In this document: piece by piece, positions 15,471 through 54,560 of the stretch
How positions within the stretch are numbered: position 1 is the stretch's first letter
Layout of the letters: each line of letters opens with the position of its first letter
Translations under genes and position numbers: made by a program
Assembly: GCA_000146465.1 (NCBI GenBank)
Contig: CP001950.1
Reading direction: 5' to 3' (one strand)
Length of the DNA stretch: 64,000 bases
The notes under the pieces: model-generated
What the model saw: only the letters and a program-made list of their open reading frames with translations
Database searches by the model: none
What the model was told of the DNA's origin: nothing

Positions 15471-16928
15471 ATGTCATGTAAGTGAAGATAAATATCAAAG
15501 CTAATTTTAGACAACCTTCTGCATATCGTTAAGCCTTTGGTGCCGTACATACCAGATGTCCAATCACCATCGAGAACAATCACCTTCCATGAAAGATTTA
15601 TCTGGACAACACTTGCAATTCTGATATATTTGATCTCATCCCAGGTTCCTTTGTTTGGAATAATCTCAAATGACGCTGCAGATCCCTTACAATGGATGAG
15701 AGCCATGATGGCATCCAACAGAGGGACACTTATGGATCTTGGAACAAGCCCTGTAGTTACATCCAGCCTTATAATGCAGTTCCTGACGATGTCCGAGATA
15801 CTAAAGGTTGACTGGTCTATCAAGGAAGACAAGAATCTTCACAATGCAACTCAAAGACTTATATCACTCATAATGACGGTTGGCCAAGCATTTGTACAGG
15901 TGTATACGGGCTTTTATGGCAGTCCAAAGAGTCTTGGTACAATATACTGCCTTCTTCTTGTTGTCCAGCTCATATTCTCGGGTATTATAATAATTCTCCT
16001 CGATGAGCTCCTTCAGAAGGGATATGGCCTTGGAAATGGAGTTAACCTGTTCATTGCAACCAATGTTTGCGAGAGCATTGTCTGGAAAGCATTTAGTCCA
16101 AAGGTACTTTTCACAGGTCGTGGAATAGAATTTGAAGGATCAGTAATTGCATTATTTCACCTTCTTGTGGTAAGAAAAAACAAATTTGCAGCAATATACG
16201 AGGCTTTCTTCAGACAAAACCTTCCGAATCTCTTTTCATTACTCTCAACTGTGTTTCTGTTTGCATTTGTTATATATCTCCAAGGAATGAGAGTAGAGCT
16301 TCCAACAGAATCTTCCCAGGTCAGAGGACATGTAGCCAAATTCCCTATCAAGTTGCTGTACACATCTACCATGCCGATAATTGCTCAAAACTATATAGTT
16401 GGACATATTTCATCTATTTCTTCCTTCCTTTACAAAAGATGGCCCCAGTATCTCTTTGTCCGCATACTTGGCGTTTGGAACACATCCAAGACTGGAAGGT
16501 ACACTCCAATAAGCGGTCTTAGTTATTATATTACATCTCCAGAGTCCCTTCTGGAGGGCCTAAAGGATCCGCTTCGATTTGTCATCTATCTTTCCATTAT
16601 GCTTCTGACATCGGCCATCCTTAGTACATCATGGCTCGAGTTAAACGAGCTATCCCCTGAAAAAGCCGCTCAGAAACTCAAGGAGTCTCGTATGAGGCTG
16701 AAGGGTGTAAGAGAAACAAACACAGTTCACGTGCTTTCCAGATACATTCCAACGGCTGCATTTCTTGGAGGGATTCTCACATCTATGGTTGTCATAATGT
16801 CTAATCTTTTTGACACCATCGGGAGCGGCACAAACATCTTCTTGGCCACGTCGATTGTAAATCAGTACCTTGAAATGTTTGCCAAAGAGTCAATCCAAAA
16901 GAACAGTGAAATAGGTTTTATCGAGTAA
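15471..16928 (+). CDS. SEC61: Sec61 alpha translocon subunit, two exons (exon1 15471..15477; intron 15478..15510; exon2 15511..16928)
   Basis: Track ORF 15537 starts with TTG GTG and there is no in-frame ATG back to a stop. With ATGTCAT|GTAAGT...CTAATTTTAG|ACAACC spliced, the N-terminus becomes MSYNLLHIVKPLVPYIPDVQSPSRTITFHERFIWT. This aligns without gaps to the canonical [35 protein letters not shown]. The rest of the protein is unmistakably Sec61 alpha. Confidence 0.8.
15478..15510 (+). other. 33-nt spliceosomal intron (GTAAGT ... CTAATTTTAG), phase 1, 7 nt after the start codon
   Basis: See the Sec61 entry. Same architecture as the RPL39 intron at 51027..51057. Confidence 0.7.
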
Positions 16929-22992: not shown

Positions 22993-23116
22993 GGACTAAA
23001 ATTAGACCCCATTTTTAAAAGCCCACTGGGTCTCTAAAACCTTGAATATCAAAACAAACCTTTAATTCTAGTATCTAAGCTGTTGTCGACGATATAATTT
23101 AGAGACCTTTTTATTC

Positions 23117-43563: not shown

Positions 43564-44865
43564 TTAGCTCTCAAAGTCTAATCTCTGCTTACTTCGGAAC
43601 CTTTCGGGACTTTTGTCTCTCAAGCCACCGCTTAGCCTTCTACTAAGGGGCGAATAAGCTGGACCTCGGGCATTGCTATGCTCCTTGTCGTCGCTAGTTA
43701 GTTCCATGGTGATTTTATTCGATACTGTTTCAATAGGCCTTCCCAGCACAGGAACGCCTCTTCTCCCATCTCTTGAGTGCAAAAACCATCTAGGCATCAT
43801 GATGGTAAGATGAGGCTTGTAAATCCAATTGTAGACATAGTCAATTGACAGTTTCATTGCTCCAACCTTGTATTTCATGTTCAACTTGTCTCTGCAGGCC
43901 ATCATTAGCAGGTGCGATGGAACAGAATCTCCACATATTGATCTTACAGCACATATAAACAAGTCATTCAGGCCCAGAAAGTTTACAAGGCCTGTCCCTT
44001 TCTCCTTAGACATAAACATTAGAACAATATGTAAAATGTTTCTAAGAGAAATATCATCAACATTGAAGATATCAAACAGAAGATAAAGAGCATTGAGTAA
44101 CGATTTTGCCCCCATGTACCTTTTCATATCCAATCTTACTCCACTATGAAGAGAATCTCTATAACCCCCCTCAAGTAAACACCCATCGAAATCCTTTTTT
44201 TCAAAAAGGATCTTTGCAACTATTTTTCTATACAGCCCATCAAGAAGATATCCTATATATCTATCTCCATGGTAAATCGATATTGCAAACACATTGAACG
44301 ACAAAAACAGCCTCATTCTGTCATCGGGATTCTGTAGCAAAAACAATGTTCTCAGCATTTCCTGGCTAGTAAGTCCTGATCTCTGAACCGGAGTGAGTCT
44401 AACAGGCCTAAATCCATCAATCATCTCCTCAACATCCCCAAATAAATTGAAGCTGTCCAGAAGAAAGCCGAGAAAAAGGCTTTTATCCACACCATCTATT
44501 TGGACCATCAATCCTTCCGATAAGATTGCAAGCTCCTTTAAGAAGTCAGAAAACCCCATGACAAAATGAAGGGAACTCTTAAAGATATTGTAGTTGATTC
44601 TAATCTTTCTCTCCCATCCATTAGTTTTTACAAAAAGAATCCTCTCTATGTTCATTCTGGCCATTGTGTCATGCCCTGCTCGTCTTTTATAGTTGTTCTC
44701 GTCCTCCATAGTGTACTTCTCCCTAGCTTTCTCTTCATGATCTTCATAGCTGCTGATGCATTTTTGTACATACTTTCGTGCGCTAGTGTAAATATAGTTC
44801 ACGGGCATTCCTACATCGATCTCATCATCAAAATTAACTTCTAAGCATGCGATCCCGTCTTCCAT
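43564..44865 (-). CDS. Hypothetical protein (433 aa) with S/R-rich phosphorylatable tail
   Basis: ATG confirmed. No family recognised. Confidence 0.4.
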   Translation of the reverse strand: MEDGIACLEVNFDDEIDVGMPVNYIYTSARKYVQKCISSYEDHEEKAREKYTMEDENNYKRRAGHDTMARMNIERILFVKTNGWERKIRINYNIFKSSLHFVMGFSDFLKELAILSEGLMVQIDGVDKSLFLGFLLDSFNLFGDVEEMIDGFRPVRLTPVQRSGLTSQEMLRTLFLLQNPDDRMRLFLSFNVFAISIYHGDRYIGYLLDGLYRKIVAKILFEKKDFDGCLLEGGYRDSLHSGVRLDMKRYMGAKSLLNALYLLFDIFNVDDISLRNILHIVLMFMSKEKGTGLVNFLGLNDLFICAVRSICGDSVPSHLLMMACRDKLNMKYKVGAMKLSIDYVYNWIYKPHLTIMMPRWFLHSRDGRRGVPVLGRPIETVSNKITMELTSDDKEHSNARGPAYSPLSRRLSGGLRDKSPERFRSKQRLDFES

Positions 44866-46784: not shown

Positions 46785-48137
46785 TTAAAGTATGTTTTTG
46801 TAGAGGAAGTATTCAAAGAAGGGGTTGTCCGGAATTGAGTCAACATGTGTAGAGTCCTGGTCGAACTCCCGGCATCTTGGGTTTGTACAGTCTGAAAACT
46901 CTATGTCATAGTATGCAGAGATGTCCTTAATTAGACTTCTGAATTCGGGCACGGATCTGGAGCAGCAGCAGAGAATAAGTCTTTTGAGGAGGACATGTGC
47001 TCTATGGATTGGCTGGCGTATCTTTATAAATAAGAATCTGATGACCTTGACGAGTTCATCATTGTCCACAATCTCAGGGTTTATTGGATGAATCATGGAG
47101 TACAGAAGATCCACCAATCCATTGAAATCATAGCATTCATCCTCATACAAGGTTAGTATGGAAAGGATCCCCTGGACCTTGGCGTCAGAGGGTATCTTTG
47201 AAAGGCTGTTGTTTAGTAGGAAATAGAGGCCCTCCATGAACCCTGGACGAAGAATTTTCCTATACTTCACAAGCCCCATAAACACATATTTATAACACTC
47301 GTATCTATCTCCCTTAAGAACCGTGAAGTACAACCTTTGAATGGCATCATAGATCCTCTTACAACTTTTCATTTCTTCAATACGCCCTTCGATGTCCTCT
47401 TCATCTTTAACCTCAGACTGAAGACTTAGACGCTCTTTCTCCATCTTCTTAAGTTTTTTGTTAAATATGCGTTTTCTATGGAATATGCTATTCTTGTCTC
47501 TCCTGGATACTCCCCTGTTTGCCTCCCAATACTCTTTGGCTTTCTCTTCATCACTCTTCAAAGAGTTGTTTACAAATGGAATGTCCAACAAGTATTCCAG
47601 AATCAAGGGATTGTACTCGAAGTCAAGCATCTGGTCTAGTATAGTTGCAATCAACTCACCGGAACAATCGCTTCTCAGCTTCAACTTTATTGTGTTGCAG
47701 CACATCATCGGTACAGACCCCTTTCCAAGAGATCCTCTCAGAACCCCCGAGACAATCTTGTCTGTGGCATTAAAGTGGTCGAAATGCTGTAAGACCTCGC
47801 ACAATGAGATATAACTTTCGTTAGATATATCATCAACCATGGTCTTTACATAAGATGTGTACCATTTAAGAAGATTCTTATCATGGTCTTTCAAGTGAAG
47901 AGCATCTCTTTTGTCTTTCACCACGTCTTTCAAAGACCTCACTTTGTACAGAGGAATGACTGCTTTAAACACTTTAAAAAGAGACAGATAAACCATTCCC
48001 TTTGCTTTCCCTTCAAATGATCCATTTCTAAGCATCTCAAATATTCCCTCCATCATATCTAGGTTCTCCTGTGGGTTTTCTATGATCTTTGTGCATATGG
48101 ACCCAATCTTCGACTTCTGCTGATCCATTTTATCCAT
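46785..48137 (-). CDS. Hypothetical helical-repeat protein (450 aa); Noc3/CBF-like ribosome-biogenesis factor possible
   Basis: ATG confirmed. All-helical. The assignment is speculative. Confidence 0.4.
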   Translation of the reverse strand: MDKMDQQKSKIGSICTKIIENPQENLDMMEGIFEMLRNGSFEGKAKGMVYLSLFKVFKAVIPLYKVRSLKDVVKDKRDALHLKDHDKNLLKWYTSYVKTMVDDISNESYISLCEVLQHFDHFNATDKIVSGVLRGSLGKGSVPMMCCNTIKLKLRSDCSGELIATILDQMLDFEYNPLILEYLLDIPFVNNSLKSDEEKAKEYWEANRGVSRRDKNSIFHRKRIFNKKLKKMEKERLSLQSEVKDEEDIEGRIEEMKSCKRIYDAIQRLYFTVLKGDRYECYKYVFMGLVKYRKILRPGFMEGLYFLLNNSLSKIPSDAKVQGILSILTLYEDECYDFNGLVDLLYSMIHPINPEIVDNDELVKVIRFLFIKIRQPIHRAHVLLKRLILCCCSRSVPEFRSLIKDISAYYDIEFSDCTNPRCREFDQDSTHVDSIPDNPFFEYFLYKNIL

Positions 48138-48770: not shown

Positions 48771-49448
48771 ATGATTGCAGTAATAGACACAGGATATTTC
48801 ATAGAAAGGCAGATTCCTACAGACAAGGTGATTAGGGGATATGTTACAGATTCTGTTATAAATGAACTTAAGACTGCAGAGTCTGAAGAATATCTCAAGT
48901 TCTTCTCCTTCATGATAGAGGTAAGGAATCCTTCGGAAGAATATGTAGAGAAGGTTAGAAGAGATCTTAGAAAAGAGGTCAACAACTTGAGTAATACAGA
49001 TATCGAGGTTGTAGCACTAACACTGGAACTAAAAGATGAGGTCTCGGAAATGTGGGTTGGGCCGGAAAGCCAGAACCAAGAGGAAGTTGTTTGCTTTACA
49101 AATGACAACGGGATAAAGAATGCGTTATTGCGGTACACTATATACGAGAGCTCTATGTTTTCCTCTCGAAAGTATAAAGTCCGATGCTATGGATGTTTTA
49201 GCCTTTTTTCCGAGAATCTGGACTTCTGCAAAAAATGTGGACATCGAACACTGACAAGAATAGCCGTTGGAGACACGGAGAATGGGGAGGTTATGTTTTT
49301 TAAGAAAGGATACGAATACAGGAAGCCAAAGACACTTAAGAATGCAAAGGGAGTGGAACTCCGGAGTGCAGATCAGAGAGAGTATGTCCAGTATCAAAAA
49401 AATCTAAAGAGTAAAAGCAACAGGTCCCAGAGAGGACTAGATTTCTGA
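48771..49448 (+). CDS. NOB1: Nob1 (PIN-domain endonuclease for 20S pre-rRNA site D) with C-terminal zinc ribbon
   Basis: PIN N-terminus MIAVIDTGYFIE; zinc ribbon RCYGCFSLF...CKKCGH. Track start 48696 is TTG; the first ATG is at about 48771. Confidence 0.7.
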   Translation: MIAVIDTGYFIERQIPTDKVIRGYVTDSVINELKTAESEEYLKFFSFMIEVRNPSEEYVEKVRRDLRKEVNNLSNTDIEVVALTLELKDEVSEMWVGPESQNQEEVVCFTNDNGIKNALLRYTIYESSMFSSRKYKVRCYGCFSLFSENLDFCKKCGHRTLTRIAVGDTENGEVMFFKKGYEYRKPKTLKNAKGVELRSADQREYVQYQKNLKSKSNRSQRGLDF

Positions 49449-49457
49449 AATCATGAG

Positions 49458-49778
49458 TTATTGTTTATTGAGGCTTATGATGTCGTATAAAAAGAATAAA
49501 CCTTCCGAAACTATCACTTTTTTTATATCATCTGCCGATACCTCTTGCTTCTGTCTCTTACCAGATATCTCCTTTGCCTTGTTCAATATAAACTCTGAGA
49601 GGATGGAGACGTATTTCGATATCAGTTTCATTCTTCTCTCTTCGGTGCTAAGGTTTATTAAAGCTGCAATATCAGAAACATTTTGAAGATCTAGAATCTT
49701 AGCTGGAGCCTGTTTCCCTCCATCTACCTTAATCTTTTTACAAACCGTCAGTATATTGTTTCTGTATCCCATAGGCAT
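49458..49778 (-). CDS. Histone-fold protein, NC2-beta/Dr1- or NF-YB/Dpb4-like
   Basis: KLISKYVSILSEFILNKAKEISGKRQKQEVSADDIKKVIVSEGLF aligns to Dr1 ELVVNCCTEFIHLISSEANEICNKSEKKTISPEHVIQALESLGF. ATG confirmed. Confidence 0.5.
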   Translation of the reverse strand: MPMGYRNNILTVCKKIKVDGGKQAPAKILDLQNVSDIAALINLSTEERRMKLISKYVSILSEFILNKAKEISGKRQKQEVSADDIKKVIVSEGLFFLYDIISLNKQ

Positions 49779-49876
49779 CCCTGGGTGGAGGATTTATATT
49801 TGTTAGATAAAGACGGAGTACAATCTCCTTCCAAAGATTGTGAGGGCCTATTTCTGGAATCTGAAAACACCGTTAA

Positions 49877-50806
49877 ATGAAGGGGAAAGACTTGAAGGAA
49901 GAAATAAAAGAATCCTCTGGAGAAAATCGAGTTATGTTCGGAAATCCTACAAAGAGGCTTGCCTGTATTGGAATGAATTGGAGAAACATAAATGTCAAAG
50001 ATCTGTTTAAGATCTTCAACTCAATTCTACTGGGCTCATCTCCTCTGAGTGTGAAGCTCTGTAAAACCAAGATAGGAAGAGAACGTCTTGGAGACAACAA
50101 CATTTTTGTCAAGAGCTGTGAAGAGGGAAGGATCGATGAATGTTACACTGCTGTTGCCGAATTTGAGGATGTAGATGATTCAAAGCACATATATACTGCA
50201 TGCGACGGAGTAAGATTAGGGAACTCGGGAATGGTGTTTGATCTGAGATTTGTGCCGGACTCTCTTGATCTTCAAAACGTATGTGATGAGGCTTTCAACG
50301 ATGACGGATGTGAAGAAAAGGACTTTGTTGTCAGAGAGAAGAAAGAGGAGGAAGATGATAGTGAGATAGAGTCTCGGCTTGAGAAATTATTCAAAGAAAA
50401 GGAAATCAACTTCGACCTTGTCTCCGAGCTGGTCGACATGTCTGATGATGAGAACATTTCCGGCCTGCAAGACCATCTGCCAATTTCTTCGGAGAACGAG
50501 AAGAGCAAGTTCCTAGAGTCCAGCTCCGACGATTTTAACGACGAAATATCGGAGGATAAGGAGATCGAAAATAAGAAAGCCAAGAAGAAAGAGTCTAGTA
50601 AGAAAGACATAGAAACCATTCCCAGAGGAAAGCCAATAGACGAGTGTGATGGCTTTATGTTTGATCCAAAAGACAAAAGATTCGAGGCAATATTTGAAGA
50701 CGAAGACTTTGCCATTGACCCCACACACCCCGAGTATAAGAGAAAGGGCGGTTTGAAGGAGATATTAGATGAAAAGAGAAAAAGAATTAAGGATAACATT
50801 GATTAA
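49877..50806 (+). CDS. ESF1: Esf1-like pre-rRNA processing protein (acidic middle, C-terminal NUC153 motif)
   Basis: FMFDPKDKRFEAIFEDEDFAIDPTHPEYK matches the NUC153 consensus (DPRF..lF.d.dFaiDPt.PeFk). ATG confirmed. Confidence 0.55.
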   Translation: MKGKDLKEEIKESSGENRVMFGNPTKRLACIGMNWRNINVKDLFKIFNSILLGSSPLSVKLCKTKIGRERLGDNNIFVKSCEEGRIDECYTAVAEFEDVDDSKHIYTACDGVRLGNSGMVFDLRFVPDSLDLQNVCDEAFNDDGCEEKDFVVREKKEEEDDSEIESRLEKLFKEKEINFDLVSELVDMSDDENISGLQDHLPISSENEKSKFLESSSDDFNDEISEDKEIENKKAKKKESSKKDIETIPRGKPIDECDGFMFDPKDKRFEAIFEDEDFAIDPTHPEYKRKGGLKEILDEKRKRIKDNID

Positions 50807-50870
50807 AGTTTCTTTGGATTAACACACAACCGGTTTGAGATTTACAATAGTGCAAGTAAACCGTTTATTC

Positions 50871-51060
50871 TTAATAGATTTTCAACTTCTTTGATCTCCA
50901 GTGTCTTCTTGCCTTGTTGTACTCCCCCTTGTGCTCCTTCATCATTCTCTTCCATGCAGGAATCTCTCTGTTCCTCTTCAAGGCTCTCATGAGCCTTGTC
51001 TTCACCAAAGCAGTCTTTCTTGATCCCTAGAAATTAACCCGAGTCAAATCGCCTTACCAT
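50871..51060 (-). CDS. RPL39: Ribosomal protein L39e, two exons (exon1 = ATG only, 51058..51060; intron 51027..51057; exon2 50871..51026); not in the ORF track
   Basis: Minus strand ATG|GTAAGGCGATTTGACTCGGGTTAATTTCTAG|GGATCA... Spliced, it translates to [52 protein letters not shown] (52 aa). This aligns end to end with eukaryotic L39e [51 protein letters not shown]. Confidence 0.75.
51027..51057 (-). other. 31-nt spliceosomal intron directly after the start codon (GTAAGG ... TTAATTTCTAG)
   Basis: See the RPL39 entry. Shares the 5' GTAAG and the 3' TAATTT-Y-N-AG architecture with the Sec61 intron. Confidence 0.7.
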
Positions 51061-51127
51061 TTCGTCGGGGCTCAAATTTTTCTCAAAATAACCTTACCGA
51101 GGAGCTTCCAAGATGAGGAGCCAAAGG

Positions 51128-52258
51128 CTATTTTTTCATCTGCTCTCTCTTTTTGCTATTTTCCCGCATTGCATTGTAAAATGTGCAGAGTTTCTCGATT
51201 GTTAGGCTGTCCTTGAGGCTTTCCAATATACTGCAAACAACTCTTATGTTGTTGGGTGTGTCTTTATCTTCTCTGATCCTATACAATTTCCACCCACCCT
51301 TCCTCAGTACAAACTCATCAAGATCCCAGTAATATCCGTCGTTGTCGTACAGAAACTCTCCTATTTTTCCATCTACTTCCTCGTCTTCACAAAAAAAATG
51401 GCCAAACACAACATCCTTTCCTCTCTTTCCACTGCACACCAGATCGTATACATGGCCAAACTCCTTGGCCTTTGTAATCTTAAAATCTATTGTGTTCAGA
51501 AACGTAGGCTTCCACTTGAGAATTACACCTCTTTTCCCTACCGAGTAAGGCTCATCTGTAGGAGTGAATATTAAGCCGTCATTTCCATGCTTCAGGTCCG
51601 GGATCTTCTTGTACACCTCCCAGAAACCATAGCTCTTCATCATCTGTTTAACATAGAAATGTATACTGATACATCCAGGCTCCTGGCCCTCAGCCCCAAT
51701 TGGAATTCTCTTCGGCTCAAACCCATCCTCGTCCTCTTTTTTTAAGGCTTTGGTCTTTTCGACACTTCCCTTCATTCTATCCACAAACATTTGTGCGTAT
51801 CCAAGCCTTTTATACAAGTTCTTAAGTATCTGGGGAGCGTCTTCATATATCAAGCAATCAAATATGGCGTAAGTGGTGACTGTGCCATCTTCCAGAAAGA
51901 TCTCTCCATCTATCAAGACAGTCGAGGAAAAGGGAAAGTTCATGTCCAATTCGTAGAAGTCGTTTTTTCTATCGTAAAAGTATCCTTTGGATATGCCCAT
52001 CTTTTCTGTAACAAGCAGCAAAGCTCTGATTCCGTCGGACTTCTCGCACACAAGGAAGTCCTTGCTCAACAAAAGATCAATGTTGTCCAGTGTTAGAGAC
52101 ACTGGATGGCATCCTGGAAACCTTTCTCTTTTCTTGGCCCCTGCTATGCAAAGCTTCTGGTATATGCCTATTCTGAGGGCCTCTGCCTCCTCGGACGGAA
52201 CTTTGTTCCCTAGATGTAAGAGCTCCATGACCGATTCAGGACTCCGACAAAACTGCAT
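51128..52258 (-). CDS. CEG1: mRNA capping enzyme, guanylyltransferase (stand-alone fungal/Ceg1 type)
   Basis: Nucleotidyl-transferase KxDG motif CEKSDGIR, and an N-terminus aligning with Ceg1 (FPGCHPVSL). Track start 52276 is GTG; the first ATG (MQFCRSPES) is at about 52258. Confidence 0.85.
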   Translation of the reverse strand: MQFCRSPESVMELLHLGNKVPSEEAEALRIGIYQKLCIAGAKKRERFPGCHPVSLTLDNIDLLLSKDFLVCEKSDGIRALLLVTEKMGISKGYFYDRKNDFYELDMNFPFSSTVLIDGEIFLEDGTVTTYAIFDCLIYEDAPQILKNLYKRLGYAQMFVDRMKGSVEKTKALKKEDEDGFEPKRIPIGAEGQEPGCISIHFYVKQMMKSYGFWEVYKKIPDLKHGNDGLIFTPTDEPYSVGKRGVILKWKPTFLNTIDFKITKAKEFGHVYDLVCSGKRGKDVVFGHFFCEDEEVDGKIGEFLYDNDGYYWDLDEFVLRKGGWKLYRIREDKDTPNNIRVVCSILESLKDSLTIEKLCTFYNAMRENSKKREQMKK

Positions 52259-52280
52259 TTTCCATAGCCCATCCACAATG

Positions 52281-52285
52281 AAAAA
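52281..52285 (-). terminator. T5 run (RNA polymerase III terminator) directly after the 5S gene 3' end
   Basis: Plus-strand aaaaa at 52281-85 gives TTTTT following ...GGGTGCTGTAATC on the minus strand. Confidence 0.5.
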
Positions 52286-52403
52286 GATTACAGCACCCGG
52301 GATTCCCGAGTGGTCTCCCGCCTCAGTACTATCCGGGCTCGCACAGGCTTAACTGCGGAGATCTGACGAGTTCCGGTGCTTTTCTGTGGATATGGCCGTA
52401 ATC
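52286..52403 (-). rRNA. 5S ribosomal RNA gene (about 118 nt)
   Basis: Minus strand GATTACGGCCATATCCACAGAAAAGCACCGGAACTCGTCAGATCTCCGCAGTTAAGCCTGTGCGAGCCCGGATAGTACTGAGGCGGGAGACCACTCGGGAATCCCGGGTGCTGTAATC. It matches eukaryotic 5S (ACGGCCATA..., box A AGTTAAGC, box C GGGAGACC...GGGAATCCCGGGTG). 5' GATTACGGC pairs with 3' GCTGTAATC (helix I). A local GC-rich island in AT-rich surroundings. Confidence 0.85.
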
Positions 52404-52493
52404 AGTCATAAATCCTTTCGACTATAAAAACAGTCCCAAAACTCCAAGCCAAAACAGAACCATCTTTTAATTAACTACACCTGCCCTCCAAAC

Positions 52494-54560
52494 TCATTCC
52501 TTCTCCCTAAGCCTTATATACTCCAGCACCTCAGACCCGCTCAAAATCCTCTTTTCGTTCAAAGTCTTTATCCTGGAAAACACTTCGAAATCTCTATCCC
52601 GGATCTTCTTCAAGACTCCTGTCTCCTCGCCATCGTTGTCCTCCTCGTGTGTTTTGACCTCGGCAAAACCTCTGGTCGCTGTAAAGCTAAACAGCTCGTT
52701 TATACATGACTTGTTGAAGAATCTACTTAGCCCAGGGTTACTCAAGACCTTCTTCCCAAGTAGATCTTTAAATATCTGCTTTTGATAAACCTTCTCTTCA
52801 ATTGTATCCTTGCAAATAAACCTATATATTTCCACACCTTTTCTCTGTCCATATCTCCATGCCCTCTCCTTGGCTTGTGTGTCTGTCGATGGATTCCAGT
52901 CCGGGTCATATATAACAATTCGAGACGCTCCAGTAAGATTTAGTCCAAGGCCTCCTACCTTGGTTGTCAAAAGAAACATGAATATGCTATCATCCTTGTT
53001 GAATCTATCCACAAGCGAAGACCGACTCGACGTCGATGTTCTACCATCCATTCTTAAGTATGCGTACTTTTCAACACACTTCTCTATTATATCTAGCATC
53101 CTTATTGTCTGCGAAAACACCAGTACTTTGTTCCCCTCACTCTTCCATTTCTTGAGAAGATCCATCAGAATCTTTATCTTACACGAGGAGCTCACAAGCC
53201 CATACTGGCTCTCTTCTTTCTTCAAAAGCCCCAAGGTCTCCTCGTTATTTTTTTCGCCAGATGCTTCTTCAGAAAGGTCTTCAGAACCGTCTTCCTTTCT
53301 GGGAATAAACAGTCTTGGATGATTGCATACCTTCCGAAGCATGGAAATCCCACTCAGAAGGTTCGCCTTTCCAATCAGAACCTTCATTATGTGTTTTGAC
53401 TCGAGAATCCTGTTGTAGAGTTCAATTTGGATTGGTGTCAACGTGCAGAATATTATTTTGTCTTCCTTGGAAGGAAGCTTATGCGAAATCTGCGACTTTG
53501 TTCTTCTTAGTATATACGGCTCTATCAATGACCGGAGCATCAAACTGTGTCTATAAGCCTTTTCAACCTGGAGATTGCTAGCACTCTTGTACCCTCCTCT
53601 ACGTATTATCTCCTCAAACTCCTCATGGAAAGAGGTGTGCGACCCCAGAAGCCCCGGATTGACAAAGTCAAACATAGACCATAGCTCCCCAAGGTTATTC
53701 TGGATGGGCGTTCCAGAAAGAACAAAGCGACTCCGAGACCTTACTTTCTTCACTGAAAGTGTGATCTGCGCATTTCTGTTCTTTATCTTGTGCCCCTCAT
53801 CTAGGACCAAAGTATCCCATAAAAGGTCCTTTGCCCTTGCCTTGAACTTCTCATACGACATCAAATACACTCCTCTGCAGTCCTCGGCTGGGAATCCAAA
53901 GAAAACTCTTACAAACGGATAAAATCTTTTCCATTCCGCCATCCATTGCGAGACTATTGTGGCTGGACACAGTATTAGTGCCTTTTCGATGGATTTGTTG
54001 TGGAATAGAACTGCTAAAAACACAATCATTTGGATCGTCTTCCCAAGCCCCATATCATCTGCAAGAACTCCACCTTTCTCTCTCTTATACAGCCCCAGCA
54101 TCCATGCCACCCCATCCCGCTGATATTCAAAAAGCGAGTTCCAAAGGAAATCTGGAATCTCAAATCCCTCGCATATACTACTTTCCTTTCTTAAATTCTC
54201 CTGGAACTCATTCTTCATAATTCCCATGTGATTGCAGTACTTCTCAATCGACTTCTCACACCTTTCGTTGAAGACTTCAATGTCCTTGTCATCTTCCATC
54301 CCAGACCATTCGAAGTCGATATTCCTCTTCTCTTCTACCTCCTCTTTTCTACTGTCCTTCTTGCACATAATCGATTTGTCTGCTGCAAGCCTGCTTTTAA
54401 CTTCCTCTATCTCTCTCTCCAAGTCCTTAACCTTCCCCATATCTCCTTTACCTTTGTGTGCCTCTATTTTCTTCTTTAGCTCATCGATCTTGGAAGATGC
54501 CGCCCTCTCCAAGTACTTTTCAACAAACGACTTCTCATAGTCTTCGGCTTTACAGTCCAT
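52494..54560 (-). CDS. SNF2-family DNA-dependent ATPase, ERCC6/Rad26-like
   Basis: DDMGLGKT, ILCPATIVSQWMAEWKRFYP (compare ERCC6 IVCPTTVMHQW), LDEGHKIKNRNAQ, and helicase-C VIYDPDWNPSTDTQAKERAWRYGQ. ATG confirmed. Confidence 0.8.
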   Translation of the reverse strand: MDCKAEDYEKSFVEKYLERAASSKIDELKKKIEAHKGKGDMGKVKDLEREIEEVKSRLAADKSIMCKKDSRKEEVEEKRNIDFEWSGMEDDKDIEVFNERCEKSIEKYCNHMGIMKNEFQENLRKESSICEGFEIPDFLWNSLFEYQRDGVAWMLGLYKREKGGVLADDMGLGKTIQMIVFLAVLFHNKSIEKALILCPATIVSQWMAEWKRFYPFVRVFFGFPAEDCRGVYLMSYEKFKARAKDLLWDTLVLDEGHKIKNRNAQITLSVKKVRSRSRFVLSGTPIQNNLGELWSMFDFVNPGLLGSHTSFHEEFEEIIRRGGYKSASNLQVEKAYRHSLMLRSLIEPYILRRTKSQISHKLPSKEDKIIFCTLTPIQIELYNRILESKHIMKVLIGKANLLSGISMLRKVCNHPRLFIPRKEDGSEDLSEEASGEKNNEETLGLLKKEESQYGLVSSSCKIKILMDLLKKWKSEGNKVLVFSQTIRMLDIIEKCVEKYAYLRMDGRTSTSSRSSLVDRFNKDDSIFMFLLTTKVGGLGLNLTGASRIVIYDPDWNPSTDTQAKERAWRYGQRKGVEIYRFICKDTIEEKVYQKQIFKDLLGKKVLSNPGLSRFFNKSCINELFSFTATRGFAEVKTHEEDNDGEETGVLKKIRDRDFEVFSRIKTLNEKRILSGSEVLEYIRLREKE

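Follow-up and report, generated by a model that had tools for sequence, protein, structure and literature searches.

Positions 50871-51060 of the 64-kb window (the window being the whole stretch of DNA that was analysed), read on the minus strand, almost certainly represent the gene for ribosomal protein eL39 of Encephalitozoon intestinalis, carrying a 31-nt U2-type GT-AG intron right after its start codon, and we consider this to be the full best explanation of the locus. The source of the DNA is E. intestinalis ATCC 50506: two public contigs (CP075166.1 of GCA_024399295.1, and one of GCA_051312815.1) are 100% identical to window positions 48871-53060, the comparison covering 4,190 bases. The gene and its protein, the intron with its position and class, the promoter signal and the inefficient splicing in a sister species are all already known. 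The locus therefore adds nothing new to the biology, and its identification is a correct rediscovery. It does however serve as a quality check, indicating that a reader working from the letters alone can recover a gene missed by ORF tracks, with a first coding exon of 3 nt and a product shorter than 60 aa.

Structure of the gene and identity of its product

The locus consists of ATG, GTAAGGCGATTTGACTCGGGTTAATTTCTAG and GGATCAAGAAAG..., the latter ending in TAA. Exon 2 opens with GGATCAAGA and runs to the stop codon at 50873-50871. Joining the start codon (51060-51058) to 51026 gives a junction (51058|51026) reading ...CCCCGACGAAATG|GGATCAAG and a CDS of 159 nt, which codes for a 52-aa eL39 (Table 1). 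Read unspliced from the upstream ATG, the same DNA yields a stop after 8 codons (MVRRFDSG*), while the eL39 frame itself is shut just 5' of GSRKT by the TAG with which the intron ends. The first in-frame ATG of that frame is codon 14 (50990-50988, MRALKRN...). Removal of the intron restores the conserved 52-aa ORF and its retention breaks the frame; since a retained intron leads to termination after 8 codons, full-length eL39 needs splicing.

Table 1 Features of the eL39 locus (window coordinates).
Feature	Position	Strand	Remarks
AAATTT-like upstream signal AAAAATTT	51074..51081	-	typical of microsporidian ribosomal-protein genes; kept in four Encephalitozoon species
CCC-like motif	51067..51070	-	6 nt 5' of start codon
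eL39 coding exon 1	51058..51060	-	start codon ATG alone; public gene call begins here (L002 2001 = window 51060)
eL39 intron	51027..51057	-	31 nt, spliceosomal, phase 0, immediately after ATG; GTAAGGCGATTTGACTCGGGTTAATTTCTAG; public span of 190 nt minus 159-nt CDS = 31 nt
5' splice site GTAAGG of eL39 intron	51052..51057	-	from the sequence
Putative branch-point motif TTAAT	51033..51037	-	probable branch A at 51034, 7 nt before exon 2 junction; orthologue alignment
3' splice site AG of eL39 intron	51027..51028	-	within TAG, also the in-frame stop closing the eL39 frame upstream
eL39 exon 2	50871..51026	-	156 nt; codons 2-52 and TAA stop; PF00832 match
AATAAA polyadenylation signal	50864..50869	-	1 nt past stop; GAATAAA invariant in five species

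The same structure is found in the public annotation. In both contigs, the gene called for the product of 52 residues covers 190 nt, equivalent to window 50871-51060, and as the CDS takes up 159 nt of these, the remaining 31 nt show that the public annotation has the same intron as well. The telomere-to-telomere assembly paper on Encephalitozoon states that introns were entered by hand in the annotations (PMC10158259). The preliminary description of this locus, in which the start codon is split from the body of the gene by a 31-nt intron and the product has 52 aa, is thus exact in sequence and coincides with the public gene span, and the junction it predicted agrees with the annotation of this genome and of its four closest relatives. 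It had also called the gene unlisted, which holds for the ORF track available to that reader and not for GenBank, where ADM12169.1 (‘60S ribosomal protein L39 [Encephalitozoon intestinalis ATCC 50506]’, shown together with three more accessions) has the same 52-aa sequence. The gene looked unlisted because ORFs below 60 aa and split genes were left out of the track.

Gene calls which do not take introns into account truncate both this gene and Sec61-alpha. In Logan assemblies of related microsporidia, such calls give a 39-aa L39 starting with M(R/K)ALK (P0006, P0007), and the same set, to which P0016 and P0017 of the L39/Sec61-alpha clusters also belong, has Sec61-alpha shortened to 462 aa. 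These truncated calls are a systematic error caused by mini-introns of this kind.

The identity of the product as an L39e was borne out by comparison of the spliced ORF with the Pfam profile Ribosomal_L39 (PF00832), which is matched over all its positions (1-42/42) with a score of 59.8 bits (cut-off 21.6) and E = 1.9e-16. The domain covers only residues 9-50 of the 52-aa product, and the profile match can therefore not justify the splice by itself, whereas the search against solved structures can. In that search (PDB), the product aligns over residues 1-52 with the same residues of chain 7qep_O9 from the E. cuniculi ribosome, with 51/52 identical positions and E = 1.3e-29. End-to-end alignments were also obtained with the eL39 of microsporidian ribosomes in 6rm3 (chain 6rm3_LLL), 6zu5 and 7qca, and for many eL39 chains from animals, plants and fungi the alignment pairs their residues 1-49 with 1-49 of the product. 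The 12 residues located 5' of the first in-frame ATG, which can be translated solely after splicing, are thus homologous to N-termini seen in eL39 structures and, judged by this homology, are the genuine eL39 N-terminus. The product would be expected in the E. intestinalis 60S subunit too, for which the E. cuniculi orthologue, a chain in 7QEP, gives indirect support.

Compared with eL39 from other eukaryotes and archaea (PF00832; e.g. human and yeast, 51 aa), the protein is alike in length, in its basic composition and in aligning from residue 1. It differs by the lineage-typical N- and C-terminus of microsporidian eL39 (MGSRKT...KLKIY), and the matches to non-microsporidian eL39 are much weaker (E of about 1e-8, against 1e-29 for E. 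cuniculi). A search of a large protein database with the 52-aa query returned two clusters only, from Encephalitozoon and Ordospora, a number that stems from the word-index limit on so short a query.

Conservation and flanking signals

The locus was compared between five species (E. intestinalis, E. cuniculi, E. hellem, E. romaleae and Ordospora colligata) using a MAFFT alignment. The gene order, with L39 between the mRNA capping enzyme and ESF1 (the latter on the opposite strand), is kept in all four orthologues. Their genes span 191, 189, 191 and 189 nt (E. cuniculi, E. hellem, E. romaleae and O. colligata, respectively) and code for 52-aa products, from which identically placed introns of 32, 30, 32 and 30 nt are deduced; with the 31 nt of E. 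intestinalis, the intron length is not a multiple of 3 in most of the five species. All five species keep the start ATG, the GT, the terminal TAG and, at 6-7 nt from the junction, a TAA(Y), the Ordospora ATG being shifted by one column in the MAFFT alignment. Alignment gaps within the gene are confined to the intron, where 17/32 columns are variable.

The coding exon varies chiefly at third positions of codons: variable columns at codon positions 1/2/3 number 2/0/7 in codons 2-13 and 10/11/28 in codons 14-52. The distribution in codons 2-13 shows purifying selection on the frame 5' of the internal ATG, and this is a strong argument against a start at MRALKRN.

The closest comparison is with the E. 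cuniculi L39 gene (CAD27011.1, in the chromosome XI record AL590451), which shares the gene order, the intron directly after the ATG and the upstream AAAAATTTGAGCCCC. Its intron is 32 nt long with a CTAAC branch motif, as opposed to 31 nt and TTAAT in E. intestinalis, and the intron bodies differ by several substitutions. For E. cuniculi, the L39 intron was published with the genome annotation, as one of the annotated introns (PMC2784321), and an intron or an intron-like motif at the same position of L39 is described for Octosporea bayeri, Nosema ceranae and Trachipleistophora hominis (literature including PMC2784321).

In microsporidian ribosomal-protein genes, an AAATTT-like motif and, after it, a CCC-like one are located just before the true start codon, and the 5'UTRs are a few nt long (PMC2803860). 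In the window, the sequence leading to the eL39 start codon is AAAAATTTGAGCCCCGACGAA|ATG. Both motifs lie within about 25 nt of this ATG, and the upstream AAAAATTTGAGCCCC agrees with the published ribosomal-protein signal; the string given for E. cuniculi L39 is ‘AAAAATTTGAGCCCCACACGAA (intron)’ (PMC2803860 supplement), while the Ordospora version of the AAATTT-like signal is AAAAAAATT. The position of the two motifs indicates that the functional start is the ATG at 51060-51058 and not the internal one. Downstream of the gene, the hexamer listed in Table 1 corresponds to the microsporidian poly(A) signal, AAUAAA (PMC2803860).

A second GTAAGG is present at 51097-51092 on the minus strand, in the spacer that separates L39 from the capping-enzyme gene, 35 nt 5' of the L39 ATG. 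It was considered as an alternative donor and rejected: the orthologues have GTGAAG, ATCAAG or ATGAAG at this place, and it is located upstream of the promoter signal, which makes it an unlikely splice donor.

Intron class, splicing and alternative explanations

Short microsporidian introns have a size range of 22-76 nt and a ‘strict branch point’ (PMC3629993). The eL39 intron falls inside this range with its 31 nt, and begins with GT (51057-51056) and ends with AG (51028-51027). It resembles the class in size, boundaries, the GTAAG, the TAAY placed 6-7 nt from the AG, the position after the ATG and the occurrence of a stop if retained, and nothing substantive sets it apart, the only deviations being a G at +6 which mismatches U1 and a branch motif starting with T instead of C. 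The 5' end of the Encephalitozoon U1 snRNA is ACUUACC (PMC5499648), with which G(-1)|GUAAG would be expected to pair at six consecutive positions, leaving the +6 G mismatched. The branch motif TTAAT (YTAAY-like) aligns with the CTAAC/CTAAT of E. cuniculi, E. hellem and E. romaleae and with the GTAAT of Ordospora, at a spacing of 6-7 nt. In every sequence-level property considered, the locus thus belongs to both the eL39 family and the short microsporidian intron class.

The preliminary description had likened this intron to that of Sec61-alpha. The Sec61-alpha gene starts at 15471 on the plus strand with ATGTCAT, followed by GTAAGTGAAGATAAATATCAAAGCTAATTTTAG (15478-15510, 33 nt) and ACAACC..., and its spliced 474-aa product is identical to ADM12142.2 and hence already annotated. 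Both introns have GTAAG as their 5' splice site, end in TAATTT..AG and lie near the start, and to this extent the comparison stands; the proposed 3' consensus TAATTT-Y-N-AG is however off by one nt for Sec61-alpha (CTAATTTTAG), in which the branch A is 6 nt from the junction instead of the 7 nt found in L39. The Sec61-alpha intron also differs by its length of 33 nt, by its phase 1 (with 7 coding nt before it) and by belonging to a gene which is not a ribosomal-protein gene. It is 33 nt long in all four Encephalitozoon species with a near-invariant sequence, so that its conservation far exceeds that of the L39 intron. The likeness between the two, from which a lineage-specific minimal intron type had been proposed, is real. 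It reflects the known strict motifs of short microsporidian introns, a class that is well described; no new intron type is involved, and the proposal is not a new inference.

The mechanism we propose is as follows. eL39 would be encoded by a single-copy nuclear gene (the exact-protein lookup in the E. intestinalis assemblies returned this locus type only), with transcription beginning a few bases 5' of the ATG under the AAATTT-like and CCC-like signal. The pre-mRNA would bear the 31-nt U2-type GT-AG intron immediately after the AUG, and the reduced microsporidian spliceosome would recognise GUAAGG via U1 and UUAAU, 7 nt from the 3' AG, via U2. The AUG would then be joined to GGA UCA AGA..., giving an mRNA for the 52-aa eL39 ending in ...KLKIY. 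The use of A51034 as the branch point and the start of transcription in E. intestinalis are what we infer from motifs in the DNA. That the intron is spliced in this species is suggested by orthology together with the lack of any other route to full-length eL39. In E. cuniculi, RNA-seq confirmed splicing for all previously annotated introns (PMC3629993). According to the literature, no split reads were found for the short introns of some other microsporidia.

An origin by chance of the ATG, GTAAG and AG, lying beside a decayed or pseudogenised fragment of L39, was weighed against the presence of a true intron. Loose intron patterns are indeed common, as GTRRG..YTAAY..AG has 20 matches in the window, but only two of these (15478-15510 in Sec61-alpha and 51027-51057 in L39) are both close to a start codon and able to restore a conserved ORF. 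The strict composite (ATGGTAAG, 15-40 nt, TAAY, 2-6 nt, AG) has one match on the two strands of the 64-kb window, against a mean of 0.21 in mononucleotide shuffles. This single match sits between the published ribosomal-protein promoter signal and the conserved eL39 frame, and it is kept in five species; on these counts, we consider a chance origin of the intron pattern to be excluded. Pseudogenisation is also at odds with the intact eL39 frame in the five species, with the exact-protein lookup, which offered no other locus type in E. intestinalis, and with the fact that the solved ribosome of E. cuniculi contains the orthologue as one of its chains, so that the probability left for this reading as a whole is next to nil. 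Two further candidates in the window were rejected as introns: a second ATGGTAAG at 43802 on the plus strand, which opens no ORF in any frame, and 22996-23026 on the minus strand, which ends in CTAATTTTAG and has a non-canonical 5' end (GTGGGC) with stops in all frames around it.

The remaining alternatives concern the fate of the intron. It could be that it is never removed and that the functional product is a truncated eL39 of 39 aa starting from the internal ATG. This is exactly the protein that intron-unaware callers yield in the related assemblies (P0006, P0007), and short microsporidian introns are poorly spliced (PMC3629993). The 12 codons 5' of the internal ATG are however conserved at the protein level in five species and homologous to the eL39 N-terminus across eukaryotes, the AAATTT-like and CCC-like signal is found at the upstream ATG and not at the internal one, and gaps within the gene occur only in the 30-32-nt interval of the intron, all of which makes such a product extremely improbable. 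A proposal with a better, if still less than even, chance of being correct is that the intron is real but mostly retained, with the efficiency of splicing throttling eL39 output and most transcripts leading to MVRRFDSG. This adds to the preferred explanation, that of a spliced eL39 gene, and does not replace it. In E. cuniculi, 30/37 introns are less than 50% spliced and 22/37 less than 20% (PMC3629993), and retention of the eL39 intron would stop translation after 8 codons; most eL39 transcripts of E. intestinalis may thus retain it, given the inefficiency in E. cuniculi. Against a throttle, the authors of that study ascribe the low levels to an inefficient spliceosome and not to regulation, and the string ‘L39’ is absent from its supplements, which provide no splicing level specific to L39. 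More speculative, and very unlikely in our view, is that inefficient removal of the intron sets eL39 output, or that retained transcripts re-initiate at Met14 and supply a 39-aa eL39 to a subset of ribosomes; the published low splicing levels are the sole support for these two ideas. If true, the intron would be more than a relic and, in a eukaryote that ranks among the most reduced, would make ribosomes heterogeneous in a splicing-dependent way.

Other loci in the window

A tRNA scan of the 64-kb window found none. At 46785-48137 on the minus strand, an ATG-initiated ORF of 450 aa has no exact counterpart among public proteins, although its neighbours do have one; for this gene, the public annotation probably uses another start or structure. 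A small gene at 49458-49778 (minus strand) sits between the ESF1 gene and a NOB1-like gene (PIN_6/Zn_ribbon_NOB1). The ORF list gives it a product of 106 aa and the two public assemblies one of 104 or 106 aa, with no Pfam match on record.

The start of the capping-enzyme gene (51128-52276, minus strand) differs between annotations, GCA_051312815.1 having a protein of 376 aa (ATG 52258) and the telomere-to-telomere assembly one of 366 aa (ATG 52228), while the mechanical ORF list has 382 aa with a GTG start. Between this gene and that of an SNF2-family DNA-repair helicase, a complete 5S rRNA gene was found at 52285-52403 on the minus strand (RF00001, 97.6 bits, model positions 1-120), the 3' end of which is located 26 nt 5' of the capping-enzyme ATG at 52258 that is used in one public annotation.
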